A stretch of 31,494 bases of DNA from an uncultured virus (IMG/VR IMGVR_UViG_3300030102_003210) (lineage: Duplodnaviria; Heunggongvirae; Uroviricota; Caudoviricetes), in the IMG/VR virus record IMGVR_UViG_3300030102_003210; one strand, 5' to 3'. A program made the translations under genes and the position numbers. The notes under the pieces were generated by a model. The model had not been told where the DNA came from and did not search any database. It saw only the letters and a program-made list of their open reading frames with translations. Shown piece by piece: positions 9,414 to 31,494 of this stretch. Numbering within the stretch: the first letter of the stretch is position 1; every line of letters begins with the position of its first letter.

Positions 9414-9494
9414 TTCATTTCCTCCTAAATTTGACGTAGGCTTCGCACCTACTTGGCAGTCAATCTACCCCTGCTAAGACTTGGGTTACGTTAA

Positions 9495-9698: not shown

Positions 9699-9716
9699 TT
9701 CTTTCTTCCTCCATTT

Positions 9717-13148: not shown

Positions 13149-13159
13149 TTTTTCTCACC

Positions 13160-13760: not shown

Positions 13761-13762
13761 TT

Positions 13763-15436: not shown

Positions 15437-15439
15437 CCT

Positions 15440-15613: not shown

Positions 15614-15619
15614 CAATGC

Positions 15620-15633
15620 CACCCTTCGGGGTG
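15620..15633 (+). terminator. C(UUCG)G hairpin after cassette 1 genes
   Basis: CACCC-TTCG-GGGTG just after the stop; no U-tract, so the role is uncertain. Confidence 0.5.
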
Positions 15634-15655
15634 TGCTAATAGCAAAGCACACCAC

Positions 15656-15665
15656 ACCATATGGT
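15656..15665. repeat. ACCATATGGT palindrome, copy 2
   Basis: Exact match. Confidence 0.9.
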
Positions 15666-15712
15666 AGGTAACTTTGTCACCTACCTGATATACATGAACC
15701 GAACTCTTAGTT

Positions 15713-16441: not shown

Positions 16442-16449
16442 ACCAAACA

Positions 16450-16476
16450 GGTCGGGGGAGTGATACTCCCTCGGCC
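16450..16476 (+). terminator. 12-bp GC-rich hairpin after the cassette 2 gene
   Basis: GGTCGGGGGAGT-GAT-ACTCCCTCGGCC, two G-U pairs on the plus strand. Confidence 0.5.
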
Positions 16477-16505
16477 TCAAGGTTATACATAGACAAAGTT
16501 CGTCA

Positions 16506-16515
16506 ACCATATGGT
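16506..16515. repeat. ACCATATGGT palindrome, copy 3
   Basis: Exact match. Confidence 0.9.
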
Positions 16516-16631
16516 AGGAGAGTAGTGACGACAGGTTACACGCATCCATTGAAGAGTCTCACTCTTCATCATCGTAGTAAATCACTGTTGTCACCTCCTA
16601 ACCCCGACAGGTTGCACCAATTCTTTTGACA
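16516..16631 (+). ncRNA. Gene-less cassette 3: candidate small hairpin RNA
   Basis: AGGAG/CTCCT, GTGACGACAG/CTGTTGTCAC and TGAAGAGT/ACTCTTCA nested stems. Confidence 0.45.
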
Positions 16632-16641
16632 ACCATATGGT
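16632..16641. repeat. ACCATATGGT palindrome, copy 4
   Basis: Exact match. Confidence 0.9.
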
Positions 16642-16730
16642 AAGCAACTTTGTCAGCATATCCCTATATGGTTGAAAACCGTCTCCGGGTGTCCGTAGAG
16701 GTCGGACAGACTAACAGGAAGTGAAAAAAT

Positions 16731-17231
16731 ATGGCAAAAAGCAATGGAAGTATAACATGGAAAGAAGACACAACATTGATTGAGGACTACTGCAACAAGT
16801 ACGCAGCCGAGATTGGCGAATTCGCTATCTCAATGCTGCAAGCGCAGTTAGCAGAGGGGAACCGAGTAATATCAAGGCAGAATTCGATAACGAAGGCTGT
16901 CAAGGCTAACCTCTCAGCGATTGAGAGAGTACACGGTATCCGCTCTCCCTTCGTATCCAACCAAGGTAAGAAGCCTCCAATGGTGCTATCCGATGATGAA
17001 GAGGCTACACGCCCCTACAGCATGGAAACCAACGAGGATGGCTACACGGTGTTGACCGTTTCGCCTGAGTTCCTCACGTTCTTCACCAAGTATTACAGGA
17101 TGAAGAACGATGACGGCTCAAGCATCGAGTCAACCGGATACAGAACCAACGAAAACCTGCTGACGAGAGTGCTACTCAACGAAGTTGAGGCTAACTGGTT
17201 GGCTGGCATCAAAAAAGCGAGGTCTGAGTAA
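16731..17231 (+). CDS. Hypothetical protein (cassette 4)
   Basis: 166 aa; RBS GGAAGTGA; flanks complementary to each other. Confidence 0.8.
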   Translation: MAKSNGSITWKEDTTLIEDYCNKYAAEIGEFAISMLQAQLAEGNRVISRQNSITKAVKANLSAIERVHGIRSPFVSNQGKKPPMVLSDDEEATRPYSMETNEDGYTVLTVSPEFLTFFTKYYRMKNDDGSSIESTGYRTNENLLTRVLLNEVEANWLAGIKKARSE

Positions 17232-17265
17232 GTCTGACCTCTTCCGACCTCTCGGACACCCAATT

Positions 17266-17281
17266 TGGCCCTTCGGGGTCA
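17266..17281 (+). terminator. C(UUCG)G hairpin after the cassette 4 gene
   Basis: TGGCCC-TTCG-GGGTCA. Confidence 0.45.
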
Positions 17282-17318
17282 TCTTGGGGTCTCCGGGCTG
17301 GCAAAGCCGCCTACTACA

Positions 17319-17328
17319 ACCATATGGT
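17319..17328. repeat. ACCATATGGT palindrome, copy 5
   Basis: Exact match. Confidence 0.9.
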
Positions 17329-17376
17329 AAAGTGCTTTGCTACTGAACCTCATAGTGTTGAAATTGAGGAGAAGAC

Positions 17377-17574
17377 ATGGAATCGGAAGCGATACTAAAC
17401 AAGCAATACCAGTATGAAGTAGAAGTCGGACACGCAAAACAAGGTTCAGACCATGTTTTGATTCTCAAGTCCCTCAAAGTTCGTGATGACAACCTAGCAG
17501 ATGTCGTCGCACAACTTGAAGCAGCACTTGAGAAAGTCAAGGACATCTTCGTAGAAGGGGGATTTGCAGAATGA
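17377..17574 (+). CDS. Hypothetical protein (cassette 5)
   Basis: 65 aa; ATG 20 nt after the start of GTTGAAA. Confidence 0.7.
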   Translation: MESEAILNKQYQYEVEVGHAKQGSDHVLILKSLKVRDDNLADVVAQLEAALEKVKDIFVEGGFAE

Positions 17575-18338
17575 GCCAAAACCACAAGAGAACCGTTGAG
17601 ATAGCATACCCTTTCGGGTTTGATAGCAGTGAGAAGGAACTTCTCAACCTTGAGTTGTTCAAGCACAAAATAGTCAACTTGGATAAGTGGGACACTGAGA
17701 TACCCTCCTATGAGCCAACGGAGTATGTTGAGACATCTTCCGTCTATCATGTCGATGTTCACAAGGATGAAGATGGCGAGTTCCAACTTTCGTTCAAGTA
17801 CAGAAGTGATGCTAGAGATGTCATCAGGCAATTGAGAACCATGATGATTTCTTGCACTGATGAAGACTTGATTGAAGAGGTAAACATCAACATCACCAAG
17901 ATTCGGGAACCGCAGTGGAGGGGAAGCACCATTCTTTTCTTGGATGCACCACATCACCTTGGTTCCTACTCTCGAAAGTTCCACATTGTCTCTGAGAACG
18001 AAGTAGGAGAAGCCAATGTCAAACTGTATGTCGATTTTACAGCATACGGATACAGCAGCACACTAACATTCACTGCTGAATGGGACACTGAGAGGGTTCA
18101 GAAAGCCAATGTTATCGAACAACACTTGGTTGACTTGCCTACCCCAATGATGGGGAAGATACAGTCTATCTTTGAGAGCGTATTCTACTCAGAGATGTTC
18201 AACAAGCCAACAGACGAACCAATAATCTCATGCAAGTTCGATGTAGTGTCACAACACTCATCAGAATGCAAGCCTTCAGTTATCGAGATGCTGAAGGAAG
18301 CGAGAGACAACGCCTCTTCTTCAGATAAGGAAGAGTGA
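17571..18338 (+). CDS. Hypothetical protein (cassette 5)
   Basis: 255 aa; ATGA coupling. Confidence 0.8.
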   Translation: MSQNHKRTVEIAYPFGFDSSEKELLNLELFKHKIVNLDKWDTEIPSYEPTEYVETSSVYHVDVHKDEDGEFQLSFKYRSDARDVIRQLRTMMISCTDEDLIEEVNINITKIREPQWRGSTILFLDAPHHLGSYSRKFHIVSENEVGEANVKLYVDFTAYGYSSTLTFTAEWDTERVQKANVIEQHLVDLPTPMMGKIQSIFESVFYSEMFNKPTDEPIISCKFDVVSQHSSECKPSVIEMLKEARDNASSSDKEE

Positions 18339-18580
18339 ACCTAGCCTTTCCTGAGCAATGAAACCAAACTGCTCACTAACACTCCACCCCTTAAGGGAAA
18401 TCTTGGGGATGATGGACATGCATCTTTTTGATATTGATTCTTCGCACAACGTCATAAGTCGTAGATGAAGCCGGAATATACTCTACGCCATCATCAGTTC
18501 TACTGTCCGTTTTGAATGCAACCTTCTCTACAAAAAGTGCCTCTGTCCTGACTTCTCGGGGTTCTGTAACAAAGTACCTT

Positions 18581-18590
18581 ACCATATGGT
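18581..18590. repeat. ACCATATGGT palindrome, copy 6
   Basis: Exact match, inside a 34-bp imperfect palindrome ACAAAGT...ACTTTGT (18569-18602). Confidence 0.9.
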
Positions 18591-18640
18591 AAGCAACTTT
18601 GTCAGTCTACCACATATATAGTTGAAATTGACTGTCTAGT

Positions 18641-18904
18641 ATGACAGAAACAAGACAACGACTGATAACCAAGTTTGGGAATCCAGCAAGAGACCAGTTC
18701 AGGGTATTCAATGAGGAAGGGCAGCATTTTCTTTCATATGAAAGGAAAATTGCGACTATTGACGGCGATAAAGTGATTTTGTATAATCCATATTGGGACA
18801 TGTATAGTTCAACGACTAATTATTATCTTCTTCAGTTCTTGAACGAGACCTCCATCCGAGATATTCGGGAGAAAGTGGCCGGAGGTGAATATAGTGTTCT
18901 TTGA
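18641..18904 (+). CDS. Hypothetical protein (cassette 6)
   Basis: 87 aa; FLSY...IA...YWDMYSSTTNYY...FL; TATATA-GTTGAAA upstream. Confidence 0.75.
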   Translation: MTETRQRLITKFGNPARDQFRVFNEEGQHFLSYERKIATIDGDKVILYNPYWDMYSSTTNYYLLQFLNETSIRDIREKVAGGEYSVL

Positions 18905-18994
18905 TGATGACTGTTAAACAAATCAACCCGCTAATTATGAAAAAATGGTCAGAATAATACGAAATATGCGTTCAGACTGATTAATTAGTAAGAT

Positions 18995-19038
18995 GGAGGG
19001 GGGGAAGCCCCGAATTGAAGCCACGCTTCCCCTCTTCC
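18995..19038 (+). terminator. 14-bp hairpin after the cassette 6 gene
   Basis: GGAGGGGGGGAAGC/GCTTCCCCTCTTCC, two G-U pairs on the plus strand. Confidence 0.45.
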
Positions 19039-19072
19039 TAACCTTCGGGGTTTAACTGGCAAAGCCGCTCCC

Positions 19073-19108
19073 ACCATATGATTGTAAATCATTTTTTACA
19101 ACCATATG
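19073..19108. repeat. Two degenerate ACCATATG copies closing the array
   Basis: ACCATATG at 19073 and 19101, separated by a TGTAAA/TTTACA inverted repeat. Confidence 0.7.
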
Positions 19109-19469
19109 CAAATTTTTTTTTGACTTTTTTGTTGGCGTTAACTTTCTTGTAAAAACAAAAAAAATGTTGTTAAAACATGGTGTAGAAACTACACTACTAT
19201 AAACCGACAACATTTCAGCATTCTTTGTGTCAGATTCCAAGGAAAACATTGAGGTGAAAAAATCGCCCTCAAATACTTCCTTCAAGATACTTCTGAACAA
19301 TGAAACTTCTAACTTTGAGTTATTCGTGAACAACATCTATTTTTATTCTGGGAATGCAAAAAAAGAAGCCAAAAAAAATTTGCTAGTGCCAAAAAAATTC
19401 CAGTCCAATTTTTGAAAAGTAAGTGGTGAAATATATATTGTCCGAGTTAATTACAGAGAAGGGGGTCCA

Positions 19470-19559
19470 ATGATGTGCAAGTATGATGGGTGTGAGATGT
19501 GGACGAGTGATTTGGATGATATGTGCTTTTACCATAGGATGTGGGGTGATGATGAATGA
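19470..19559 (+). CDS. 29-aa Cys/His microprotein
   Basis: MMCKYDGCEMWTSDLDDMCFYHRMWGDDE; first of an ATGA-coupled chain. Confidence 0.55.
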   Translation: MMCKYDGCEMWTSDLDDMCFYHRMWGDDE

Positions 19560-19633
19560 GTAAAACGAACAGTGCGATGTTCTTGAGATGTCTGGAAGAG
19601 ATGTTCAAAGAGTGGGATGATGAATCTGAATGA
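19556..19633 (+). CDS. 25-aa microprotein
   Basis: MSKTNSAMFLRCLEEMFKEWDDESE; GGGGTGA RBS; ATGA overlaps. Confidence 0.5.
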   Translation: MSKTNSAMFLRCLEEMFKEWDDESE

Positions 19634-19686
19634 TTATATGGGAATTTATTCACGGTCTTTGGTGTTGGGGTAGACTTAGATTATGA
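19630..19686 (+). CDS. 18-aa microprotein
   Basis: MIIWEFIHGLWCWGRLRL; ATGA overlaps on both sides. Confidence 0.4.
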   Translation: MIIWEFIHGLWCWGRLRL

Positions 19687-19787
19687 AAACCCATTTTGAA
19701 GGCGTATGTCTGGTTTGTGAGTGGATAAGGACTATCGAATGGTCAAGACAGGGTTGCTTCTGTCAGTTATGCGGTGAGTATGTATGA
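19683..19787 (+). CDS. 34-aa zinc-ribbon microprotein
   Basis: MKTHFEGVCLVCEW...CFCQLCGEYV; ATGA overlaps. Confidence 0.6.
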   Translation: MKTHFEGVCLVCEWIRTIEWSRQGCFCQLCGEYV

Positions 19788-20095
19788 GTTGGTTCGATAC
19801 TGTGAAGGCTCCTAGGATACCGAGGAAGAAGGGACAGAGGAGAAACTCAAAGAAGCATTCTGACTTGTATACCGATGAGAATCCAAAGGGAACGATTCAC
19901 GGTTTGGGGTTCAAGGATGAGGAAAAGTCTAGGAAGTCCGTTTCCAAGATAAGGAATAGTAACAGGAGCCATGCGCATAAGATACAAGCAGCATTGGCGA
20001 TGGAGCAGAGAGCAAGAGTGATGGGTAAGAAAAAGGAAGCAGGAATATTTAGGGACTTCATAGAAGGACAACAGAAGAAGAGGGGTAAAGAATGA
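19784..20095 (+). CDS. Basic MSW-tag protein
   Basis: MSWFDTVK; HSDLYTDENPKGTIHGLGFKD. Confidence 0.8.
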   Translation: MSWFDTVKAPRIPRKKGQRRNSKKHSDLYTDENPKGTIHGLGFKDEEKSRKSVSKIRNSNRSHAHKIQAALAMEQRARVMGKKKEAGIFRDFIEGQQKKRGKE

Positions 20096-20379
20096 AGCAG
20101 AGAATAATTAGAAAAATGATTTCGTTGATGGGTCGAACCTATGTTTGGTTGGATAGGAAACTAGACCATCCCGAAGGTCCAGTTCTAGGTTTGGAGATTG
20201 ATGATGACTTTGCTGCGATGAGTAGGTATGAGTTGTGTTGTCACATAGAGGATAAGTTCGGGTTAGAGAGGGATTCCTTTTGGGAGTTGGAGTCTACACA
20301 GAAGATTCGCTTTTGTAGTCAAACTGCTAGGAACATCCTGACACCTAAGAAGAAAGGTCGAAAGAAGAAATCTTCATAG
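20092..20379 (+). CDS. Hypothetical protein
   Basis: 95 aa; ATGA coupling; no MSW tag. Confidence 0.7.
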   Translation: MKQRIIRKMISLMGRTYVWLDRKLDHPEGPVLGLEIDDDFAAMSRYELCCHIEDKFGLERDSFWELESTQKIRFCSQTARNILTPKKKGRKKKSS

Positions 20380-20402
20380 AACTACACCATCTCGCATGTA
20401 GC

Positions 20403-20657
20403 ATGTCGTGGTTTGACACACTCAAGATGCACTGTGGTGGTGATACTGAGAAAATTGACGAAGACCCCGATGAAATGACTGACTTGAAGAGTCAGATTCT
20501 AAGAGAGATTGAGAAGGAGGGCGGTGCTTTGGGCATGAAGAACCTGAAGCAGTTTGCTGATGAGAAGAAACTCAAGGAAGTTCTATCGAGCATGGAGAAG
20601 GATGGAGAGTTATTCATGCACGAAGATGGAGACATCTACACACATAAGCCGAAGTGA
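20403..20657 (+). CDS. MSW-tag protein, winged-helix-like C-terminus
   Basis: MSWFDTLK; LKEVLSSMEKDGELFMHEDG. Confidence 0.75.
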   Translation: MSWFDTLKMHCGGDTEKIDEDPDEMTDLKSQILREIEKEGGALGMKNLKQFADEKKLKEVLSSMEKDGELFMHEDGDIYTHKPK

Positions 20658-20662
20658 CTGAG

Positions 20663-20965
20663 ATGAGTTGGGAATCCATAATAAAAAACGTCCGAGATAC
20701 ACCCATTGGTGATATGGAGGAAGACGAAAGAAATGCTGAACGTATCCGTAGGGAGATGGAATCAAAGGACTACGATGGTCGAGAAAGGGCTAATAGAATA
20801 ACGGCTAAGATGGCAGTGAAAGAAATAAATGAATTGAGGGACAGACTGGATAAAGTCGTTGAAGAGTGTGAGGATGGAATAAACAGAGTCATTAACAATG
20901 AGGTAGATTCGGAATACGCTGAGAAACTTCTAGAGGGTATTAGGAAGACAGCCCTAGGAAAGTGA
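20663..20965 (+). CDS. MSW-tag helical protein
   Basis: MSWESIIK. Confidence 0.75.
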   Translation: MSWESIIKNVRDTPIGDMEEDERNAERIRREMESKDYDGRERANRITAKMAVKEINELRDRLDKVVEECEDGINRVINNEVDSEYAEKLLEGIRKTALGK

Positions 20966-20970
20966 CTGAC

Positions 20971-21273
20971 ATGAGTTGGCAAAAAATCTTGAAGGAAGAC
21001 GAACCAAGTCAATCCGATTCACAACTAAGGAAAGACCTGAAGAGAATCCTATACAGTGAAGAGAGGCTCCTAAGTAAGAAAGTCATTGATGAGTTGTTGG
21101 AAACTGACAATCCAATTGAGGAAGCAATGAGTATTCTAGAAATTCACCTCAAGCAGAAGAAAGTGGGTGAATCCTCGCTTGTGCCTTACAAGGAAGTCAT
21201 GCGTGAACACAAAGACGAAGTGAAAAGACTAGAGAGTGGTATATCTAAGTTGAAGGATTTGAAGCGTGATTGA
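20971..21273 (+). CDS. MSW-tag helical protein
   Basis: MSWQKILK. Confidence 0.75.
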   Translation: MSWQKILKEDEPSQSDSQLRKDLKRILYSEERLLSKKVIDELLETDNPIEEAMSILEIHLKQKKVGESSLVPYKEVMREHKDEVKRLESGISKLKDLKRD

Positions 21274-21274
21274 C

Positions 21275-21628
21275 ATGAGTTGGCAAGACAGCATAAGGAA
21301 AGAGAAGTTCCAAGGACCAAAGCGGGAAGGTGCAGACTTCACGCCTAGCAAGTTCGATTTGGGTTTGGGCTTCAAGCAGATAAATTACAATATAGACAAT
21401 ATTATGGAAACTGTTGAAAGAGCGATGGACGCAGATGCTCAGGTTGTCAAGTCCATGTTGAAATCGATACGACGGTATGCTGAAGAGGCAAAGAGAGCGA
21501 TAGACGAAGTAGACGAGAAGATGCTAGAGTCAGCAAAGTATTCTAAAAGGCGGGATAGTGACTATGTTCATATCGAAGGTGCGAAGTACCGAAACCGAGA
21601 TGGTTCGTTGACGTTTGGGGGTGATTGA
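21275..21628 (+). CDS. MSW-tag protein
   Basis: MSWQDSIRK. Confidence 0.75.
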   Translation: MSWQDSIRKEKFQGPKREGADFTPSKFDLGLGFKQINYNIDNIMETVERAMDADAQVVKSMLKSIRRYAEEAKRAIDEVDEKMLESAKYSKRRDSDYVHIEGAKYRNRDGSLTFGGD

Positions 21629-21629
21629 T

Positions 21630-22082
21630 ATGAGTTGGGAAGACGTATTGAAAGTGCAATTGAGAAAGCCTTCTTCTATGCAAGGTGCTAATACTCAAGC
21701 GATAAACAGATTCTATGATAACCAGATGAATCGTGATATTCAGGCTTACGTTGATGGAACGCAGAGAGAAGGTAAGATTCCCAACTTCTCTATTATGGTT
21801 AACACGAAGCAGCCTAATTCTGGTATGAAGCGTGGTAGGCTTGGTGCAACCTATATTATTGGCAACGAGGACTATGTTGCTATGGGTAGCCCGAACCCCG
21901 AGAGGATATATGAGACTCTAAGCCCTAAGTTTAGGCAAAGTGGTTTTGAACCAGAGAGAGGACTTAGGGGCGGAATAGCAATCAAGGTTCCGAAGGAACA
22001 GCGTAAGGACATACGGCAGAGAAATCCGGGTATGATGGGGAGAGCGTATAGGACACTTCAGTCGAGACTACCCGGTAGGTAG
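21630..22082 (+). CDS. Basic MSW-tag protein
   Basis: MSWEDVLK; GGTGA RBS. Confidence 0.75.
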   Translation: MSWEDVLKVQLRKPSSMQGANTQAINRFYDNQMNRDIQAYVDGTQREGKIPNFSIMVNTKQPNSGMKRGRLGATYIIGNEDYVAMGSPNPERIYETLSPKFRQSGFEPERGLRGGIAIKVPKEQRKDIRQRNPGMMGRAYRTLQSRLPGR

Positions 22083-22128
22083 TTTTGGAAATGTCTTTAG
22101 TCCAAGGTGTGTTGTGGAGGTTCAGGTT

Positions 22129-22344
22129 GTGTCATCTCCATACGAATCATCATGGTTTAATTTATTGCGAGCGGAGGGCGCAGTTCTGACAACCTCCCCC
22201 GGTAGCGTAGACGCAGAAACAGGGATGACAGCACTATTTGGAAGGAAATTTGGCACAAAGAGGAGGAGGAAGAAACGTGGCAAAGAGACTAAAGAAAAAT
22301 CAAATCAAAGTCACGATAGGCGACGATATGGTGATATACTCTGA
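22129..22344 (+). CDS. Small basic protein with a tag-like motif near the N-terminus
   Basis: GGAGG RBS then GTG 22129; SSWFNLLR; KRRRKKR. Confidence 0.55.
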   Translation: MSSPYESSWFNLLRAEGAVLTTSPGSVDAETGMTALFGRKFGTKRRRKKRGKETKEKSNQSHDRRRYGDIL

Positions 22345-23419
22345 AAAAGGCGTAGTTCCTTGGTCTGAGTACATATCAGAGTGGAAGACGGCTGCTGGAA
22401 AGTCACTTCCTGCTGGCTCGGGTTCACCCACAGTCCTATCGTGGATTGGAAACATGGGGAATATAGGTAGGAAGAAGGGTAGGTCAAAGAAAGGGGATGA
22501 AGACAACTTCGATGCCAAGGCTCCCATTCCTAAATACTTGGAGTTGGCTGATGCCATAGGGACGAAGAAGAACCTCTCTGAGGAACAGTTCGATGCAGTT
22601 AAGAACCTCAAGGAGTACCTTGAGAACAACGATAACGAGAATAGTAAAATCAACCCACAGAACATATCGTTCAGGTCGGTTGCGGATTTTGAGGAAGACG
22701 AAGAGGGCAGGGGTTTCCCTACTTCGTTCAAGACTATGTACGGTGACTACCGAACACCTCAGTATAGGGAATTCAGAAATGAGTATAGGGAAGGAAACGT
22801 TGAGAATGTTCCTAGTGATTGGTACGATGAAAATCCAAGGAAGGCCAATCCGCCAGTTTATCAGGCACTTTGGGGAACTCTTGGGACATCTTGGTTCGGG
22901 TCGAAGAGCCTTCTGCAAATCTGCAAGGAGTATGAAGAGCAGGAGTTGACAGAGTTACCGTTCAAGCCGACTAGAGAAAAACCGTTGAAGGTTGGTGGAA
23001 ACGGAACTGCCGAGTTCTTGATGAACAATGTTCCGGGATTCAGGAAGTTCGTACTGGAAACCGTTCAGAACACCAGCCAGTATCGCTTGAAGAATGGGAA
23101 CTACAGGTCAAAGAGGGCAATGAACATGCTAAGGAAAAATCCAACCGCCTTCCCACTTACTGATGACCAGTCAGACAAGGTTATGCAGCATCTGAAAACC
23201 AAAAGGCTCTATGATTTGAGTGGAATATTCTTGGATGTCAATTGGAGGCAGATGGAACATGCTGCCAAGATGCTTCCTGAGTACAAGCGTCTCAACTACG
23301 GAGTGTCGGATTCTGAAGTAGAGAAGAAATCTAAGGTTTCTGAGGATGGAGTTAAAAAATCACAAGAGAAATCCCCTGTTTCTATAAGTTGGAAGGAAAT
23401 CATGAAGGTGAGGACATGA
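22277..23419 (+). CDS. Hypothetical protein with a C-terminal tag-like motif
   Basis: GGAGGAGG RBS before GTG 22277; ends ISWKEIMKVRT. Confidence 0.8.
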   Translation: MAKRLKKNQIKVTIGDDMVIYSEKGVVPWSEYISEWKTAAGKSLPAGSGSPTVLSWIGNMGNIGRKKGRSKKGDEDNFDAKAPIPKYLELADAIGTKKNLSEEQFDAVKNLKEYLENNDNENSKINPQNISFRSVADFEEDEEGRGFPTSFKTMYGDYRTPQYREFRNEYREGNVENVPSDWYDENPRKANPPVYQALWGTLGTSWFGSKSLLQICKEYEEQELTELPFKPTREKPLKVGGNGTAEFLMNNVPGFRKFVLETVQNTSQYRLKNGNYRSKRAMNMLRKNPTAFPLTDDQSDKVMQHLKTKRLYDLSGIFLDVNWRQMEHAAKMLPEYKRLNYGVSDSEVEKKSKVSEDGVKKSQEKSPVSISWKEIMKVRT

Positions 23420-23510
23420 GGTGTAGAGGATTGAGTGAGGTTAATATGAAGAACATGGCGGGTGGATTTATTTGCCCGTATTGTTTTACGAATTGTGCGA
23501 GATGAATGGG

Positions 23511-23882
23511 ATGAGTTGGAAAAATATTCTGAAAGAAGAAATGAATATCGAAGATAATGATATTTTTGATAAGTTTGTGGAAGACTTAACAGATAGACTA
23601 ATTGATAGAGAATTAAAAGACCATTTAAGAAGACCAAAGCCCGACGACCCCATAGAGTTCAGAGAGCAATATAAAAATCACGAAACTGCTCTCAAAGAAG
23701 TTTTGTATGATGATTTATTTACCAATATTGGAAACAGATTAGGAAAGGCAATAGAAGAAGTAGTTTTTGAAAAGGGAACAATAGATTATGATGATAATCT
23801 TTCCTCATCGGGCATACTCGTTTTAATTGAAGCGATAGATAAAAATGAGAAAGAATTAGAATCTAGAAATTTAGAATGGTAG
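23511..23882 (+). CDS. Acidic MSW-tag protein (AT-rich gene)
   Basis: MSWKNILKEEM. Confidence 0.75.
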   Translation: MSWKNILKEEMNIEDNDIFDKFVEDLTDRLIDRELKDHLRRPKPDDPIEFREQYKNHETALKEVLYDDLFTNIGNRLGKAIEEVVFEKGTIDYDDNLSSSGILVLIEAIDKNEKELESRNLEW

Positions 23883-23895
23883 AAGGGTGATTAAT

Positions 23896-24213
23896 GTGAG
23901 TTGGAAAGAAATACTGAAAGAAGATAGAATAGCCAAGGCAACACTTGAGGTTGACCCTGAAACGGGAATAAGATACAAGAAGTGGGATGGTCAAGGAAGA
24001 CCACCGATTAATTCACTACTAGAGGAAGGAAAGGGACTAGGAAAGGACGTAACTGGTTGGGACTATGTTGTTGAACAAGCAGGAAGGAGACCCGGACAGG
24101 GAGTATTGGGTTATGATAGCAGTGGATTCAAACATAACACGATGGGTCATCAACCGTATACTCACAAGGGAAGACACTTCTGTTTAGCATGTCAAATTGA
24201 GTTTAGGGGTTGA
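23896..24213 (+). CDS. MSW-tag protein with a C-terminal H/C zinc motif
   Basis: GTG-start (M)SWKEILK; GGTGA RBS; HFCLAC. Confidence 0.7.
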   Translation: MSWKEILKEDRIAKATLEVDPETGIRYKKWDGQGRPPINSLLEEGKGLGKDVTGWDYVVEQAGRRPGQGVLGYDSSGFKHNTMGHQPYTHKGRHFCLACQIEFRG

Positions 24214-24217
24214 TAAA

Positions 24218-24397
24218 ATGAGTTGGGAAGATATTCTGAAAGAAGAGATGACTGAGGAAGAGAGAAAAAGGTACATGAAAAAACTGGCAGAGACATCTGC
24301 TGCTTTCGAGAGGTACAAGAAGGAACTAGCGGGAACCCCTGAAGCATTCAAACCCGGAGAGAGCCTAGAGGACCATCAGAAGAGATTTGGATACTAG
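24218..24397 (+). CDS. Small MSW-tag protein
   Basis: MSWEDILKEEM. Confidence 0.7.
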   Translation: MSWEDILKEEMTEEERKRYMKKLAETSAAFERYKKELAGTPEAFKPGESLEDHQKRFGY

Positions 24398-24405
24398 GTG
24401 GGAAA

Positions 24406-25062
24406 ATGATTACGAGAAAGCGTTGTCCTCTATGTATGCATGAGGATAGGAGTCAACTTGAGGCTGATTTGGAAGCCATGAGTTACTCAGCAGACGCTTT
24501 AGACCAGCAGATGAACTGGAAAAGTGGCACGACAGCACGACATCAGAGGAATCACATGGGAGCATATGTCGATTCTGCCAATCCAAGTTGCAAGATGTGT
24601 TCACATCCAATGAGAGCGGAGTTGGAGTCGCAGATTCACAGTGGGGAGATGAGTCCCTTGACTGCTTCACGCATAGTTGAATGCACAGAAGACCAAGTTG
24701 TCCGTCATGTGGATAAACATCTTAAGCCAATCGTGCAGAAATCTGCTGCGAACATGATTGCAAAGAAAGAAATCGATGAGATTGAGACTTTGAGTGCAAA
24801 CGTGCAGAGATTGGAGCAAAAAATTGATACTTTATTCGGTGAAGACTCTACTGACCCGAAATATATCGACTCGTTGACTAAGTTGGCAAAGGAGGTTCGT
24901 GAGTCTCTGAAGTATTTGCTAGAGTTCAAGGGCAAATTGGTGCATAAGAGGCAAGACACTATCATCGTTCATCAGATGCAGGTCATCAAGGAGGTTCTAG
25001 CACAGAACCATCCTGATGTTTGGTTGGATGTCAGAAGCAAGATGGAGGAGAAGTTGCAATGA
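24406..25062 (+). CDS. Tandem Zn-HTH protein with a coiled coil; candidate terminase small subunit
   Basis: Two repeats of CxxCxH..R..LE...RHxxxH followed by a helical oligomerisation-like region; upstream of terL. Confidence 0.5.
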   Translation: MITRKRCPLCMHEDRSQLEADLEAMSYSADALDQQMNWKSGTTARHQRNHMGAYVDSANPSCKMCSHPMRAELESQIHSGEMSPLTASRIVECTEDQVVRHVDKHLKPIVQKSAANMIAKKEIDEIETLSANVQRLEQKIDTLFGEDSTDPKYIDSLTKLAKEVRESLKYLLEFKGKLVHKRQDTIIVHQMQVIKEVLAQNHPDVWLDVRSKMEEKLQ

Positions 25063-25355
25063 GTTGGATGGCGGTTCTTAAGGAAGAAGACCTTGAAATT
25101 TTTTGGGATTCAAAAGATGGAAAGGCAAGTGCAGAAGTTTTCTATGCAGGTTATTGGGGAATTTTGTCTTTTCATCATGATGGAGAAGAAAGAAAGGGAT
25201 TGGGAGAAAAATACCTAAGAGAACTGGTTGAACACTTGCTTTCAATAAAGGATGCAGACATAGAGGCCGATGGAACTTTACCCAATGTAGATGGGTTTTG
25301 GGATAAAATGCTAGAGAAAGATATTATTGATTCAATTAGAAGAAGAGGACAGTAG
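25059..25355 (+). CDS. MSW-tag minimal GNAT-like protein
   Basis: MSWMAVLK; ERKGLGEKYLRELV (motif A-like); GFWDKM. Confidence 0.6.
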   Translation: MSWMAVLKEEDLEIFWDSKDGKASAEVFYAGYWGILSFHHDGEERKGLGEKYLRELVEHLLSIKDADIEADGTLPNVDGFWDKMLEKDIIDSIRRRGQ

Positions 25356-25366
25356 GAGAAGATGCA

Positions 25367-25663
25367 ATGAGTTGGTTTGATGTTTTGAAATATTTCCCAA
25401 GTGCAAGGGCTGAAGACCAAAATAAAAACTATAATTTGCCAACAAAAATAGAACAAAATCCTGATGGTAGTTACAAGAATCTACCGACATATCAAGAGTT
25501 TCAGGCAGAGACTAAGAGACTTCAAGATGAGGCGAGAAAGGCAGCAGCCGATGGTAATCATGAAATTGCAAGGTCATTGTCAGATTTAGCGAAATACAAC
25601 ACCCAAAGAATGCTTAACTTTTATCGCAATGGTCCTGACACATACACAAAGAGAGGAATGTAG
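25367..25663 (+). CDS. MSW-tag protein
   Basis: MSWFDVLK; GGAG RBS. Confidence 0.75.
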   Translation: MSWFDVLKYFPSARAEDQNKNYNLPTKIEQNPDGSYKNLPTYQEFQAETKRLQDEARKAAADGNHEIARSLSDLAKYNTQRMLNFYRNGPDTYTKRGM

Positions 25664-25664
25664 A

Positions 25665-26066
25665 ATGAGTTGGGAGATTATTCTAAAGGAACTTTCATGT
25701 CCTAGAGCAACGCAAGACCTGATGCTCAATACTAAGAACAGAGATGCCGCAGTGAAGAACCCAAATATTCGTTATGGTCCTCTCAATCTTGAAGATGAGG
25801 AATATTGGAAGGAGTATGCGAAAAGATGGAAAACAACTCCTGAAGTTGCCAAGGAGTCTAATTGTAGCAATTGCATTGCTTTTGACATATCTCCAAGAAT
25901 GGACAAGTGTATGCCTTTAACTACCGATGATGATGGTAGATTGGGATACTGTTGGATGCATGATTTCAAGTGTCATTCAGCGAGAACCTGCTACACTTGG
26001 GCTAAGGGTGGCCCAATAGATGATGATGCCACATCAAAAGAGAATCAAATGAGGGGAGAGCAGTAG
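25665..26066 (+). CDS. MSW-tag Cys-rich protein
   Basis: MSWEIILK; CSNC...C...GYCWMHDFKC...TCYTW. Confidence 0.75.
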   Translation: MSWEIILKELSCPRATQDLMLNTKNRDAAVKNPNIRYGPLNLEDEEYWKEYAKRWKTTPEVAKESNCSNCIAFDISPRMDKCMPLTTDDDGRLGYCWMHDFKCHSARTCYTWAKGGPIDDDATSKENQMRGEQ

Positions 26067-27944
26067 ATGAGTTGGTTTCAAGTTCTGAAGGACGATGACT
26101 CTCCCAAGCAAAGGAAGATTCCCAGTTTTCAAGAGAAGGTAATGAACACCGCTCGATGGATGAGAAGTAGAAGAAAGGAAATACTCGATGCAGTAACCAC
26201 GGATGATGCTCTTGAGAAGTACAGGGAAGACCCTGATATTATGAAATTGATAGTGGACAAAAATCAGAGTTTTATTCAAGATATAGAATTCATAAGAAGA
26301 CTTCTTACCGAAGACACTATCACGAATAGAAGAGGAAACACTTTCAAATCACTAAAAGGAATGCTAGGTGCAAGAGCATCTCAGATGGTTCAGAGACTAG
26401 ACCTTCTAGGCAAGGCGAAGAAGACAAGTCGTGGTAATGTCAGGGAAAGCACGAACAGAACATTCGAGATGATGATTTCTGATGGCAACTGGGGTGAACT
26501 CCTAGAATCTCTAGGAGATGAAAAGAGAAAAAGCAGATTCATGCAGATGATTCAATCCAACCCCTCCATGAGGAAGAAGATATATGACGAGACTAGGGAC
26601 ACTGAGTACGCAAACGAGTTCTCGTTGTTGATGAACATGAACCAAGAGGAGTTCGTCAGCATAGACTACACTGGTGATATCGCTGACTCGACAGTCAAGG
26701 ACTATGTTAATCATATCCTTTCCAAGATAAAAGCCTCCCCTGCCAAGAAGAACGAGTTCATCTACTTTGAGAAGAAGTCTGAGAGAAACATGCTCAACCT
26801 GTTTCATCGCACGAAGGGGATGAACCCTGCGCTTGAGTTCCTATTCGACAACGAGAACTTCAACACCAGTGCCATGACAAAGGGTGCGCCTATGATGAGG
26901 GACTCATATCTAGAAGAAACACTCATGAGCAATCTCAGGGATAAAAGCAGGAAGAGGAAGGTTCCAATACCAACCAAACTACAGAATGCATTCGACCTTC
27001 CTGAAGAGTTCCTAATCGGTGGGGAGGAAAGCACCCAGATGAAGATAAGACTCAGGGAGGCCAAGAAGAAAAGCAACAAAGAATTCATGGCTCTATTAAA
27101 CGATTATTTTCCAAAAGAGGTCAACGAGTTCAAGAATGCTCTCAGACAAGTTGAGAGAGGAAAATCAAAGGAAGTCGAGGAAGGTCAGACCTATCGTGAA
27201 CTACTAGAGGACATAGAGCAAGAGGTTCTTGAGTATGTGAATGAGGCTATGGGCCTAGATAATGATGATGAGAAGTTGGATGCTGCTCAACTAAGGGAGA
27301 GAAAGGAAGAACTGAAACAGGCAGTTCAGAGAATCATAGATGGTGATGCCAAGGAAGAAGACTTGAAGATGTTTCCCGGAGCAACGCAACAAACCAAGCA
27401 GGAGCATCCGTTTCTATCGGCAGACTTCAACTTGAGGAGAATCATGAGCAAAAAACTAGGAGTCGGTGCAACTGCAACTGACATAGTTATTGCACTACAA
27501 CTCACATCCAACTTGACCAATGGTGCTTTGACCATATACGAAATAAGGAAATACTTCAGTGACATAGAGAAAGTAAAGGATGCAAAAAAGATAGAGGAAC
27601 TGAATACCTTCCTAAGCAAGAAGGCAAAGGAGGGAGATGACCTTAACGAGGCAAAGTTGAGAGCCGAGGAGGAGGTTAGAGACAAGTTCCTAGATGAGGT
27701 TAGGAAAGACTATGCTAGTGCTAGGAAGGCTCTCATTGAAAAAATAAAGGACACGATGAAAGAGGTTCTGAAAGAGGGTAGGAAGATGGGTGTTGAGTTT
27801 GATAGGAAGGCAAAGCAGGAGAGAATAGTTACTTCAAGGGATGCTGAAGGAAGAGCAACCGACACTAGAGAAAGCGTATCCACTAAGTTCCAGTATCTTG
27901 AACCGTATTTCTACCTGATTAAAATACTAGACATTGAGAAATGA
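26067..27944 (+). CDS. Large helical MSW-tag protein (probable virion-internal protein)
   Basis: 625 aa; MSWFQVLK; charged and helical. Confidence 0.8.
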   Translation: MSWFQVLKDDDSPKQRKIPSFQEKVMNTARWMRSRRKEILDAVTTDDALEKYREDPDIMKLIVDKNQSFIQDIEFIRRLLTEDTITNRRGNTFKSLKGMLGARASQMVQRLDLLGKAKKTSRGNVRESTNRTFEMMISDGNWGELLESLGDEKRKSRFMQMIQSNPSMRKKIYDETRDTEYANEFSLLMNMNQEEFVSIDYTGDIADSTVKDYVNHILSKIKASPAKKNEFIYFEKKSERNMLNLFHRTKGMNPALEFLFDNENFNTSAMTKGAPMMRDSYLEETLMSNLRDKSRKRKVPIPTKLQNAFDLPEEFLIGGEESTQMKIRLREAKKKSNKEFMALLNDYFPKEVNEFKNALRQVERGKSKEVEEGQTYRELLEDIEQEVLEYVNEAMGLDNDDEKLDAAQLRERKEELKQAVQRIIDGDAKEEDLKMFPGATQQTKQEHPFLSADFNLRRIMSKKLGVGATATDIVIALQLTSNLTNGALTIYEIRKYFSDIEKVKDAKKIEELNTFLSKKAKEGDDLNEAKLRAEEEVRDKFLDEVRKDYASARKALIEKIKDTMKEVLKEGRKMGVEFDRKAKQERIVTSRDAEGRATDTRESVSTKFQYLEPYFYLIKILDIEK

Positions 27945-27953
27945 GGGAATACT

Positions 27954-30635
27954 ATGGATGAGAAATTTGCCACTTTGCTAGAAAGAGGTGTGAAGAGCCT
28001 TGGAGACAGGAGAGAGCAACGGGAATATCTGAATTCGTTGAAGGAAAACCCTGATGGGCAACTTCTCATCGACTATCTTGAGCAGAAAGATGTCGGAGAG
28101 ATAGCAACTGAAGACAATAGGGATGACTTCAAGACTTCATTGTTAGTTAGGGACACACTCGACAACAAGATAAAACTTCAACCATTCATAACAGTCAGGG
28201 GAAGTTCCAGTGCAGGTAATCAGATTGCTAGTAGACTACAGCAAAAATATCCCGGATTCAACTCGATACCTGTTGACGCAAGAACAAAAATGGTTGAGAA
28301 ACTAGTTGAGAATTATGGAGTGAAAATGACTAGTGCTGCTAGAAGAAGGGTTGAGACACCAATCAGCGAGGCTAGAGAATTAAAGAGGCACTTGTCTAAT
28401 TTTGTGAATAGGAACACTGGCAAGGAGTTGACCTCTGCCATACTAAGAAAACCAAAAATAGACACTAAGAACATAATGTTAGATTCGGAATCAACGAAGG
28501 CAGATAGGGAGTCGGCACTTGCTTTCCTGTCCAATCACTCAGAGAGGTTGAAGTTGAATCCGTTGATAACTATGCTTGAGTCATCTATGAATCTAGGTGA
28601 AAGAATAGTTCAACCAAATTTTCTACTGCAAGACTTCATCGCAAAGGGAGACCTTCGGCTAACTAAGAACAGGAGAAAGATATACGATTATTGGGAATCA
28701 ATATCACCTAAGTACGAGGCTTTAGTGAAGGCGCATAACGATTTCAAGGAAGTTCTCAACGCAGCCTTCCCGAAAGATGAGAGGGACAATCCAGAGAATG
28801 TGGAATTGAAGGACTCAGAACTCTATGACGTAATAGACAAGTTCAATGAGTTTGACAATGAGAAGATAAAGCAATTGGAGTATGTCTTCAAATTCGGGCC
28901 TGTTGACTATTCCACGATAGATAGTGACGACAAGGGAATAGAGGCATTAGATGAGTTTCTAGATAGGTACAAACTGCTTTCTGAGCGGTCTACCGCTCCA
29001 TCACCCAAAGCACGACAACGGAGCGGATATAGGAGAACAGAAGAACAAGGTGGAGGCCAAGTAGGTATAATGGAGGCAGGAGATTCAGGTTCAGAGATAT
29101 TGCAAGAAGAGACGAGGATTATGAGGCTTCGTGACTTGATTGAGGACAATATTATCGACACAAAACTAGACCCACTTTTCGCCTATGCATACAAGCAAGG
29201 CAAGGCGGGGTTCAGGGTCACACCTGCAATGGCACAAGACTTCAGAAGAATGAAGAATAGAATGAAGAAATATGCGATTAGACTACGACTCAATAAAGAA
29301 GCATTGAGACAGGTTGAGCGTTTCATGAATGACATCGAGATGCAAGCCGTGATATCAGAGGGAGACTTTTTCCTACCATATCAAGAAGAATTGATAGATG
29401 AGATATATGGTGGATTTAAGGACGATGGAAAGTATATTGAACCTGATTCTAAAACAGATACGAGGATAATCAAGGACTATCTAGATACGATATCCTCTTT
29501 TATTCAAGCAGGTCAAGAGGTAGAGAGAGGGACTGGAATAGGAATTAGCACTACTAAAGTAGTTGAGGCAGTTTCTGGAAAGAAGGATAAACTGGGTAGA
29601 AAGCAACGTCAACAAATTGGAAGCGGTAGGGGAGTCTCCCTACCATCTAAGAGAAGCATGAGAAGTCAGTTAGGCAGTCTCGATACCAGTGGCACTATAT
29701 TCAGAGAGGTTGAAGTAGAAGAAGGAGGAGAGAAAAAGAAAGTCATGAAGCCAAAAAAGGTGCAGTTAAAACCACTCTTCAATGACCTCCTGAAGGCAAT
29801 AAACGAATATTATGTAGACCCGGCCACATCAAGTTTGAAGCCCCTTGCTAGAAGGTTTGATTGGATGGACACGACTACCTTGGGAATCCTAGGCTCAAGA
29901 AGAGTGAAGGGAAACGCCTTCCTAACTATGTTGAGTCTACAGAGGTCTAATTCAGGTGGAATACTTCTAGATGAGCCTAACATGGAATCGGTTGTCAACA
30001 TACTATCGGCACTTGCCAAACCAGTCACAAAAAATAGTGCTGGTTCCTTCCTAGATTTGCTAGAGGATGCGGCAGGTGCAGTTGATGAGGTCTTCAAGGG
30101 AGATGACAGTAGAGGTGTAAGCATAGAGTTCGGTAACTTAGGATTCGAGACGTTGAAGAAAAACGGTCTAGATACTGATAAGAATTTCTCAGGAAAAAAA
30201 CTAAGCGAATGGCACAAAATATACAACGAATCTCCCGGAGTGATATATCCCTTTGGAGCGTTATACTACCATGTATTGTCTAATGAGACTTTATACACTA
30301 AATACAGTACGAAATACGAAAGCCTAATTTCAGAAATAAAGAGGATAGAGAATAAATTGGACATCGTTAAAAGCGACTTGGAAGTTAATTACCTAAACGC
30401 ACACGACACAGTTAGGAAGATGATGCAGAAGCCAATCTACTATGGTCTTAGTTCTACTGATGACTTCGATGACGTTCAAGAGACCATCTCAATCATGAAG
30501 TCTGAGTTTAACACTGACTTGACCGCTATGGAGATAGAGAGTATAGTGAAAGAACTAGACTCTATGGAGAATCTAAGCCGCAAGTACGGGATATCAACAG
30601 AGGGGGTCTATTACCTCAAAGCAACTCATAGGTGA
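27954..30635 (+). CDS. Large hypothetical protein; C-terminal HTH-like segment
   Basis: 893 aa; SMENLSRKYGISTEGVYYLK. Confidence 0.85.
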   Translation: MDEKFATLLERGVKSLGDRREQREYLNSLKENPDGQLLIDYLEQKDVGEIATEDNRDDFKTSLLVRDTLDNKIKLQPFITVRGSSSAGNQIASRLQQKYPGFNSIPVDARTKMVEKLVENYGVKMTSAARRRVETPISEARELKRHLSNFVNRNTGKELTSAILRKPKIDTKNIMLDSESTKADRESALAFLSNHSERLKLNPLITMLESSMNLGERIVQPNFLLQDFIAKGDLRLTKNRRKIYDYWESISPKYEALVKAHNDFKEVLNAAFPKDERDNPENVELKDSELYDVIDKFNEFDNEKIKQLEYVFKFGPVDYSTIDSDDKGIEALDEFLDRYKLLSERSTAPSPKARQRSGYRRTEEQGGGQVGIMEAGDSGSEILQEETRIMRLRDLIEDNIIDTKLDPLFAYAYKQGKAGFRVTPAMAQDFRRMKNRMKKYAIRLRLNKEALRQVERFMNDIEMQAVISEGDFFLPYQEELIDEIYGGFKDDGKYIEPDSKTDTRIIKDYLDTISSFIQAGQEVERGTGIGISTTKVVEAVSGKKDKLGRKQRQQIGSGRGVSLPSKRSMRSQLGSLDTSGTIFREVEVEEGGEKKKVMKPKKVQLKPLFNDLLKAINEYYVDPATSSLKPLARRFDWMDTTTLGILGSRRVKGNAFLTMLSLQRSNSGGILLDEPNMESVVNILSALAKPVTKNSAGSFLDLLEDAAGAVDEVFKGDDSRGVSIEFGNLGFETLKKNGLDTDKNFSGKKLSEWHKIYNESPGVIYPFGALYYHVLSNETLYTKYSTKYESLISEIKRIENKLDIVKSDLEVNYLNAHDTVRKMMQKPIYYGLSSTDDFDDVQETISIMKSEFNTDLTAMEIESIVKELDSMENLSRKYGISTEGVYYLKATHR

Positions 30636-30639
30636 TAGA

Positions 30640-31203
30640 ATGGTAACTATCAGTTCAAGCCTGTATTCCGAAGACCAAATGATAGACCTCTTGAAGGAGT
30701 TTCATGGTGATGGTAAAGACTGGCCTAAACCGAATGGGTTTAGACCTAGAAGCGTTTGGGGTGGTAACAAATACTCTAGCACCAACCCCGTATTCTTCAT
30801 GGCTTTTGATGGGAATAAACCAATAGGATATGGGGGATTTGAGGACAATGGGAAGTTCATAGTAAGTGCAGGAGTTAGTGTCCATCAAGACTATCGTGGT
30901 AAGGGGATAGCGAACAAACTCATCAGAATGAGAAATGACAAATATGCTTCAGCGAACAAGCCAGCACTTGTTGCTATGAATACTAAGGTCATGGCAGCAG
31001 GAGATTGGAAGAGCAAATGGAAGAGAACTGGTTGGGTTGATTCTCCTGAAGACTCGGAGATAAGCGAAGAAGACAAACGTGCGATTCCATCTGAGGTGTT
31101 AGAATACCACAGAAAAAGATACGGAGACAATTGGATGTTGTATCCTGTTGGTTCTAAGCCTATGGCAAAGGCTTGGAATATTCTATACAAGGGTGATTTC
31201 TAG
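30640..31203 (+). CDS. GNAT-family acetyltransferase
   Basis: PIGYGG...VSVHQDYRGKGIANKLI acetyl-CoA motif A; GGTGA RBS. Confidence 0.85.
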   Translation: MVTISSSLYSEDQMIDLLKEFHGDGKDWPKPNGFRPRSVWGGNKYSSTNPVFFMAFDGNKPIGYGGFEDNGKFIVSAGVSVHQDYRGKGIANKLIRMRNDKYASANKPALVAMNTKVMAAGDWKSKWKRTGWVDSPEDSEISEEDKRAIPSEVLEYHRKRYGDNWMLYPVGSKPMAKAWNILYKGDF

Positions 31204-31208
31204 TGGAG

Positions 31209-31494
31209 GTGGATAATCTAGATTTCATGTCTTCTATGGATATGGAACTATCTAAGAACTCATTTCCCTACTTCTTCAAGAACGTTCTAGGAATGATGTA
31301 TCCCGAGTACATGGAAGAGTGGCTAGGCTCTATGGAAACCACTGATAGAACAGTAATCATTTGTAGCAGAGACCACGGAAAGTCAGTCTTCATGCACAGT
31401 TGGGTTGTTTGGAATCTTATCTTTCAAGAGCCACCATATCAGATGCTATACATCTCATCGAACCAAAAGCAGACGCTTGTTCACATGAGGGAGA
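31209..31494 (+). CDS. terL: Terminase large subunit, 5' part (truncated by the window end; start uncertain)
   Basis: Manual translation: FPYFFKNVLG...RTVIICSRDHGKSVF (terminase-type Walker A RxxGKS)...MLYISSNQKQT. Confidence 0.85.
   Translation, partial: MDNLDFMSSMDMELSKNSFPYFFKNVLGMMYPEYMEEWLGSMETTDRTVIICSRDHGKSVFMHSWVVWNLIFQEPPYQMLYISSNQKQTLVHMRE

Follow-up and report, generated by a model that had tools for sequence, protein, structure and literature searches.

The stretch of DNA analyzed here, referred to as the window, comprises 31,494 nucleotides from an uncultured virus (IMG/VR record IMGVR_UViG_3300030102_003210; Caudoviricetes), and our subject is an eight-residue peptide, the tag, that opens a series of its proteins. 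An initial annotation, made from the sequence alone, had listed 13 tagged starts, and all of them were confirmed at their coordinates, 12 with an ATG and one (23896) with a GTG start codon. In the window the tag has the consensus M-S-W-x-x-[ILVS]-[ILV]-[KR], carried by 13 plus-strand open reading frames (ORFs) between 19784 and 27944, and every ORF of at least 40 amino acids with the full motif lies on that strand (13/13). The partial DNA pattern ATGWSNTGG occurs 24 times, as compared to 5.9 expected (100 shuffles, maximum 14). From 19784 onwards the plus strand holds small ORFs, proteins of 625 and 893 amino acids, a GNAT acetyltransferase and then, at 31203, the N-terminus of the large terminase subunit (TerL):

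19784..20095, plus strand: N-tagged protein of 103 amino acids, MSWFDTVK; basic body that matches phrog_727 from residue 9, i.e. after the tag
20092..20379, plus strand: untagged ORF of 95 amino acids within the block
20403..20657, plus strand: N-tagged protein of 84 amino acids, MSWFDTLK, with the Ser codon TCG
20663..20965, plus strand: N-tagged protein of 100 amino acids, MSWESIIK
20971..21273, plus strand: N-tagged protein of 100 amino acids, MSWQKILK
21275..21628, plus strand: N-tagged protein of 117 amino acids, MSWQDSIR, with variant S6 and R8
21630..22082, plus strand: N-tagged protein of 150 amino acids, MSWEDVLK
22238..23419, plus strand: ORF of 393 amino acids, start uncertain, with a C-terminal tag ISWKEIMK at 23384-23407
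23511..23882, plus strand: N-tagged protein of 123 amino acids, MSWKNILK
23896..24213, plus strand: N-tagged protein of 105 amino acids, GTG start, (M)SWKEILK
24218..24397, plus strand: N-tagged protein of 59 amino acids, MSWEDILK
24406..25062, plus strand: untagged ORF of 218 amino acids within the block; its stop overlaps the following tagged start (ATGA)
25059..25355, plus strand: N-tagged protein of 98 amino acids, MSWMAVLK; a body in locus L034 has a closely similar N-terminal sequence
25367..25663, plus strand: N-tagged protein of 98 amino acids, MSWFDVLK
25665..26066, plus strand: N-tagged protein of 133 amino acids, MSWEIILK
26067..27944, plus strand: N-tagged protein of 625 amino acids, MSWFQVLK; conserved, all-helical, of unknown function
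27954..30635, plus strand: protein of 893 amino acids without N-terminal tag, conserved neighbor of the tagged block
30640..31203, plus strand: GNAT acetyltransferase without N-terminal tag (Pfam PF00583, E 5e-8)
31203..31493, plus strand: large terminase subunit, N-terminal part, running off the window (phrog_38, E 1e-7; full-length orthologue, E 3e-52)

The bodies behind the tag had been described as unrelated, which agrees with our comparison of the 13 proteins minus their first 10 residues, where BLASTP returned no mutual match (E<=1e-3). Pfam (E<=0.01) gave no match for 11 of the 13 and only sub-threshold, coiled-coil-type matches for the other two. A GNAT-like body had been counted among the tagged proteins and has to be withdrawn, as no N-tagged protein of the window is GNAT-like and the GNAT protein itself starts MVTISS. 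Likewise, the 393-amino-acid ORF had passed as untagged; its motif is C-terminal, followed by three residues and the stop. No tag was found on any minus-strand gene or on any plus-strand gene in 14787-18904, as the initial annotation had stated for the minus-strand and cassette genes. By inspection, the tag lacks the hydrophobic core of ~7-15 residues of a Sec or Tat signal peptide, having only two or three hydrophobic residues. In the AlphaFold2 model of the 625-amino-acid protein residues 1-16 are unstructured (predicted local distance difference test, pLDDT, <50) and the fold begins near residue 21; the model, all-helical, is weak overall (mean pLDDT 62.6, predicted template modeling score, pTM, 0.32). 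For this protein a single-sequence query of IMG/VR returned no close relatives and an alignment query returned 5. The 893-amino-acid protein had no family match, and an ESM Atlas look-up gave no usable match.

Relatives were collected by a portal-alignment search of IMG/VR, which gave 152 relatives; 80 loci were kept and L002 was dropped as a duplicate of G002, leaving 79 loci. Magroviruses belong to the most abundant viruses of archaea in the surface ocean, and we know of no host in culture and of no function for most of their genes. The window belongs to such a magrovirus, with a tail, a genome of ~100 kb and Marine Group II archaea as hosts. Three features of the order Magrovirales were found, i.e. 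the genome size, a halovirus-like capsid protein and a ligase in the structural module. Complete relatives measure 95-103 kb; their capsid protein is closest, among isolates, to those of two haloarchaeal siphoviruses, HVTV-1 and HCTV-1 (25% identity); and the interval from portal to protease includes an untagged 861-amino-acid protein that has an ATP-dependent DNA-ligase domain (L014:13448-16033; present in 74/79 loci). According to PMC5434244, magroviruses have a ~100-kb genome, a capsid protein nearest to those of haloarchaeal siphoviruses and, within the structural module, a second DNA ligase that is ATP-dependent, so that this last feature is already published. The gene order after the terminase in the relatives is a 445-486-amino-acid protein, the portal, more small genes, the ligase-domain protein, an S78 prohead protease to which an acidic linker and a coiled coil are fused (hereafter protease-scaffold), and an HK97/SU10-type major capsid protein; in L014 the last two genes occupy 16055-18662. 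A blastn search of 26067-31494 against isolated phages gave no match.

Tagged genes are a regular part of these loci. At least one tagged ORF was present in 76/79 loci, with 351 tagged ORFs on the portal strand and 2 on the opposite strand, and the first tagged gene frequently lies immediately 3' of the portal gene. For whole genomes, we counted tagged ORFs in five CheckV-complete genomes with a simple ORF caller (127-135 ORFs each), which makes the tagged-gene count conservative, and obtained 55 tagged ORFs, or 9-13 per genome. The restriction to the morphogenesis block that had been anticipated was borne out, as 54/55 lie on the strand of the structural genes and fall into a zone of ~17-21 kb surrounding TerL and the portal, which corresponds to the block upstream of the terminase plus the portal-to-ligase interval. 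No tagged gene was found among the tail or replication genes of the five genomes. The commonest DNA form of the tag was present in at least 135 further IMG/VR stretches. HVTV-1, the nearest isolate by capsid protein, has no shared terminal motif on its head-module proteins, and the tag is therefore not general to this capsid lineage.

The diversity seen in the window extends to the relatives. The pooled set of 467 tagged ORFs, in which overlapping loci were counted twice, contained 366 distinct sequences with a median length of 107 amino acids (range 40-730), and these fell into 145 BLAST clusters, 96 of them singletons. No Pfam match (E<=1e-4) was obtained for 117/120 cluster representatives; the three exceptions were a PAP2 phosphatase domain, DUF5754 and a chance in-frame start within a reductase gene. 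The PAP2-type domain sits on a tagged protein just 3' of the portal (L011:10914-12623, L122:13097-13948), and in G003 the tag of this protein is degenerate (M..SFMDILRK), while its orthologues have MSWFDAIK. Turnover of the tagged genes is fast: only 4 of the 13 in the window have a counterpart among the tagged genes of G001, and G003 and G004, whose portals are 96% identical, have 4 tagged genes in common out of 7 and 6. The tagged genes also appear to shift between the two clusters, upstream of the terminase and after the portal, as L034 has an apparent counterpart of the window gene at 25665, with a closely similar N-terminal sequence, directly after its portal.

One tagged protein with a basic body (L014:9902-10207) matches phrog_7595 from residue 10. 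Homologues of this body in roseobacter phages and cyanophages, including Celeribacter phage P12053L and Synechococcus phage S-CBS2, are 55-68% identical and have no eight-residue tag, as their start is the start of the body. On these comparisons the tag is a modular add-on to protein bodies. The alternative of common descent, i.e. that one small ancestral gene was duplicated often and that the bodies diverged beyond recognition with the N-terminus kept by chance or weak constraint, would suit the arrangement of small genes in tandem and their common AGT codon at Ser2 (see below). It is difficult to combine with recognizable folds as unrelated as a PAP2 phosphatase, a GNAT acetyltransferase and a phrog_7595 domain with untagged homologues in bacterial phages, with the wide span in length, with a motif retained in orthologues at 39% identity and with its presence at C-termini, and we regard such a relic as very unlikely.

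Another explanation to be weighed is that the tag is a nucleic-acid signal at gene starts, acting in translation initiation or coupling or as a site for cassette-swapping recombination. The window and five related contigs supplied 45 distinct tags for codon statistics. Trp3 is invariant (45/45), all six Leu codons are used at Leu7, every Ile and Val synonym is used at position 6, and Lys8 is encoded by AAG (24) and AAA (18) in proportions equal to background. In orthologues chosen by body similarity the core was kept and positions 2, 4 and 5 changed. The 625-amino-acid protein has 18 homologues down to 39% identity, and S-W-F-Q-V-L-K is invariant in 18/18 rows of its alignment (A1, the window protein plus 17 of the 18 homologues); in a family of 106-amino-acid tagged proteins the Trp is present in 34/34 members. 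The variety of synonymous codons together with the conserved residues shows that the signal is a peptide, and the earlier suggestion of conservation at least partly at the protein level is upheld, with a purely nucleotide alternative excluded for positions 3 and 6-8. The variation in Ser codons reported for the window was also found (AGT 12/13, TCG 1/13, at 20403). Ser2 had been presented as a fixed residue and is instead a preference, with T, N, K, D and A also occurring in relatives.

What speaks for a nucleic-acid signal is the second codon. Ser2 is encoded by AGT in 28/31 cases as compared to 24.5% in the background, AGC is never used, and 38/45 tags have an A at +4; furthermore, the nine common bases ATGAGTTGG could favor illegitimate recombination of cassettes. 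An overlap of the start with the preceding stop (ATGA) was considered as a cause of the AGT codon and set aside, as it fits one tagged start only (25059) and most of the tagged starts are free of such an overlap. Untagged genes of the block have, by inspection, similar purine-rich sequences upstream, and the same peptide is found at C-termini and in the scaffold tail, where no initiation takes place. The tag signal is hence a peptide plus an unexplained nucleotide bias at the second codon, and we consider a nucleic-acid signal as the main explanation most improbable.

Copies of the motif are not confined to N-termini. In a position-weight scan, the five complete genomes yielded 51 matches above 15 bits at N-termini and a single internal one, which is an in-frame internal start, and the weaker matches concentrate at C-termini. 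The motif rate in the last 12 residues is ~6-fold that of internal positions (20 in 20,839 positions vs. 60 in 384,792). Ten of the 17 unique motif-bearing C-termini listed belong to the family of the 393-amino-acid ORF, a membership judged by length, position and shared C-terminal sequence and not by homology search, and they read [SD]-W-[KR]-x-[IV]-[IMV]-K plus 2-3 residues, the window member ending ...ISWKEIMKVRT. The window GNAT protein has a C-terminus (...AKAWNILYKGDF) that is tag-like only. Among its orthologues (e.g. L085:6652-7230, L081:6591-7148) some are N-tagged, with MDWFEIVK or MNWFSILK, and others end [SG]-W-[FR]-[FY]-x-Phi-Phi-R-G (Phi, hydrophobic residue). The acetyltransferase may itself be cargo and not an enzyme that modifies the tag. 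The distribution of copies indicates that the tag is usable at either protein terminus.

The same core recurs in the protease-scaffold. At 10-14 residues from the C-end, all 56 unique orthologues (56/56) share the motif [E/S/D]-[M50 L4 I2]-[S55 D1]-W56-x-[D39 E17]-[I50 L3 V3]-[H50 N6], in which the numbers are counts, and the Met of this tail is not a start codon. Scaffold tail and cargo tags have an M-S-W-x-D-I core in common, which suggests that cargo may have copied the scaffold's own capsid-binding end, and that such codes could originate in this way. The capsid-binding ends of the HK97 maturation protease are reportedly the subject of Duda, Oh and Hendrix 2013, and the capsid-binding signal of these other systems is not known to be copied onto many unrelated cargo genes. 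The position of the tail motif near the extreme terminus is in line with known scaffolds and the HK97 maturation protease, as terminal segments contact the inner surface of the HK97-fold capsid protein, at its inner N-arm/spine helix, in 80alpha, P22, HK97 and D3 (available text of PMC12749128). In the AlphaFold2 model of the protease-scaffold the tail is helical (block-mean pLDDT ~66-71); the overall mean is 49 with a poorly modeled protease domain, so the placement of the tail and of the FDILK segment described below is uninformative. Co-folding of the capsid protein with a conserved 106-amino-acid tagged protein gave a score of 0.00 in two runs without controls, which speaks neither for nor against binding.

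A second magrovirus lineage (L338-L341, L264-L337) has a different tag of 12 residues, M-T-A-F-D-x-A-W-x-L-V-K, with the Met at W-7. This tag gave 76 IMG/VR pattern matches, with a start codon exactly three codons upstream in 43. The scaffold tails of this lineage read M-G-[SN]-x-x-x-G-W-x-A-[AV] in 4/4 examined, also with the Met at W-7, as compared to the window lineage, in which Met and Trp are spaced by two residues in both tag and tail. Tag and scaffold tail thus appear to vary in step, in one case of co-variation in which two tag types are compared. The capsid protein N-terminus, Y-I-[NK]-T-[LIVM]-K-D-L-E in the window lineage, was considered as a further copy of the motif and then dropped for lack of reliability, as T-I-E-D stands at that place in the second lineage.

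The end of the protease domain raises the question of cleavage after the Lys, which the initial annotation had put forward as a possibility. EAKFD[IV]LK is invariant there in the 56 orthologues (EAKFDILK 53, EAKFDVLK 3), at the junction where self-cleavage from the scaffold part is expected, and FDILK is also what residues 4-8 of the consensus tag read. In both tag types the last three residues are two hydrophobics and a Lys, the junction of the second lineage is [FY]-T-I-L-K, and the T4 targeting sequence is reportedly also a protease site, as the title of Mullaney and Black 1996 has it. The motif could then mainly serve the S78 prohead protease for recognition and cutting (after Phi-Phi-K), with the tagged proteins being pro-proteins that are activated or released and with targeting absent or achieved by something else. 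Several observations fit this poorly. The junction is unchanged when the tag changes between the lineages, and it may therefore be just a strand of the protease fold. C-terminal copies retain the Lys, although a cut at that place would take off no more than 2-3 residues; the position following Lys8 varies (mostly K, E, A or D); and the look-alike N-terminus of the capsid protein has lost the Lys in the second lineage. A P3-P1 site also leaves unexplained why the Trp is invariant and why tag and scaffold tail have the same Met spacing. We thus find a motif that is mainly a cut site rather unlikely. A combined dock-and-cut label as in T4 fits the invariant junction, and is weakened by the same lineage and C-terminal evidence. 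The motif F-x-I-L-K-S at the N-terminus of the protease (56/56) was also considered as a copy of the tag; it is kept in the lineage with the different tag and is therefore probably part of the protease fold.

Taken together, these results make it fairly probable that the tag acts as a portable peptide for docking, which by imitating the scaffold tail brings hypervariable cargo into the procapsid. During assembly the HK97-type shell would grow around the scaffold, with the scaffold tail gripping an internal site, most likely on the inner face of the major capsid protein. Any protein with the same peptide would compete for these sites and become enclosed, and after removal of the scaffold and packaging of the DNA the cargo would stay in the head and probably be delivered to the host with the DNA. 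The cargo could then have roles in host takeover or counter-defence, as is suggested by its fast turnover between close relatives. The head-cargo address label proposed in the initial annotation is in this respect strengthened by the restriction to the head-gene neighborhood, the portability between termini, the add-on domains and the core shared with the scaffold tail, while we infer presence in virions and, likewise, the binding partner, encapsidation and ejection. More tentatively, and as something we hold possible rather than probable, the tag may co-evolve with the scaffold tail, work at either terminus and mark the whole injected magrovirus proteome, i.e. at least 10 hypervariable proteins per genome, including a PAP2-type phosphatase and a GNAT, that would serve, once delivered with the DNA, in the takeover of Marine Group II archaea or against their defences.

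Tag and scaffold tail might instead dock on a hub other than the capsid interior, such as the portal, a virus-encoded chaperonin or a host factor. The frequent position of the first tagged gene right after the portal gene would agree with this, and so would the thermosome- or GroEL-type chaperonins that magroviruses encode according to the available passages of PMC5434244. On the other hand, the only carrier of the motif with a known role is the protease-scaffold, which acts inside the procapsid, the tagged genes are limited to the neighborhood of the head genes, and twelve portal sites would be too few for at least 10 cargo species in quantity. Docking on another hub is in our judgment unlikely.

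Several observations weigh against a docking peptide for the capsid interior, in addition to the bias at the second codon and at +4 described above. Where a cargo tag reads L-K the scaffold tail reads H-N, which means that tag and tail are not the same sequence. The likeness between tag and tail in the second lineage is much weaker and consists of the Met spacing, small residues, the Trp and hydrophobics at +2/+3 only, and the co-variation rests on four related genomes, i.e. one evolutionary event. One of the 55 tagged genes is on the other strand and far from the head genes (G007 at 3003). In the window, the larger tagged cluster is upstream of the terminase and not in the classical portal-to-protease interval, and the genomes would have to load up to ~13 cargo species each, including proteins of 550-730 amino acids. 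Finally, the tagged ORFs were gathered by a regular expression and statistics on identity within the set are therefore partly circular; for this reason we set aside a comparison of core and variable tag positions within clusters.

Short targeting peptides on diverse proteins are known from other systems. The capsid-targeting sequence on T4 internal proteins (IPI, IPII and IPIII) is likewise a short N-terminal peptide on otherwise diverse, polymorphic proteins, and it is similar in size and chemistry, with an aromatic residue, polar or acidic residues and a hydrophobic pair (MKTYQEFIAE in ipII and ipIII, MKTFKEFTST in ipI; NC_000866). The likeness is one of pattern alone, as there is no sequence homology between MKTYQEFIAE and MSWFDILK. 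Here, moreover, the virus is archaeal with a Pfam S78 protease that is fused to the scaffold, whereas the T4 prohead protease, gp21, is of a different family, and T4 has a handful of tagged genes as compared to 9-13 per genome in our counts. The present motif also differs in occurring at C-termini and in sharing its core with the scaffold's own tail. The available text of PMC3012670 describes the T4 internal proteins as diverse except for the conserved sequence that places them in the scaffolding core, and correspondingly we found a short N-terminal peptide on unrelated proteins, with cargo genes that are polymorphic between close relatives.

In phage P1 the N-terminal 30 residues of DarB suffice to send a reporter into the capsid (PMC9024508, in the passages available). 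This signal has no sequence likeness to the tag and belongs to a single large protein of the Dar system, which is assembled stepwise, unlike a family-wide tag on dozens of small proteins. Cargo loading in encapsulins likewise relies on short peptides at the termini of diverse proteins, which bind the lumenal side of an HK97-fold shell; these peptides are mostly C-terminal and differ in sequence from the tag. Encapsulins are without portal, terminase and DNA, whereas terminase and portal genes are present here. The tag is not mentioned in the available portions of the magrovirus literature (PMC5434244, PMC11706807, PMC10160649; supplements aside), where the sole passage on a 'motif' concerns a helix-turn-helix protein, and none of the papers listed by a literature search that paired archaeal viruses with capsid targeting sequence contained the latter phrase.

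If the docking function holds, sequence alone would assign a location in the virion interior, and likely a first-in-host role, to about a tenth of the magrovirus genes (9-13 of 127-135 ORFs). A simple motif could then be used to pick candidates for host takeover or counter-defence from metagenomes, and eight residues would provide a handle for loading foreign proteins into an HK97-type shell. Should the cargo be injected as well, this would be the first cargo-loading code described for an archaeal virus, readable from metagenomes.

Some features outside the tagged block were also recorded. The minus-strand genes of the window (1-14164) include an ATP-dependent DNA ligase, a ThiF/E1-like protein (4246-4863, minus strand), a TFIIB zinc ribbon protein (5080-5973, minus strand), a ribonucleotide reductase and a pyrimidine-dimer glycosylase; the TFIIB and ThiF/E1-like genes suggest possible transcription control and ubiquitin-like modification. 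An AT-rich gap of ~880 bases (18905-19783), with only short minus-strand ORFs, separates the untagged plus-strand genes from the first tagged gene and may be the site of the promoter of the tagged block. Downstream of the capsid gene in L014, a 174-amino-acid protein (18745-19269) has a C-terminal SAP domain (E 4e-11). The tag patterns also match two contigs that far exceed magrovirus size, L153 (184,733 bases) and L277 (458,729 bases), which could be concatemers, mis-assemblies, chance matches or other viruses. In G001 (oriented 28866-29579) and G007 (54644-55060) a longer ORF starting MPIRRVKGGYKWG contains the tag in frame, ~42 codons from its start, which reflects either a fusion or a mis-called start.

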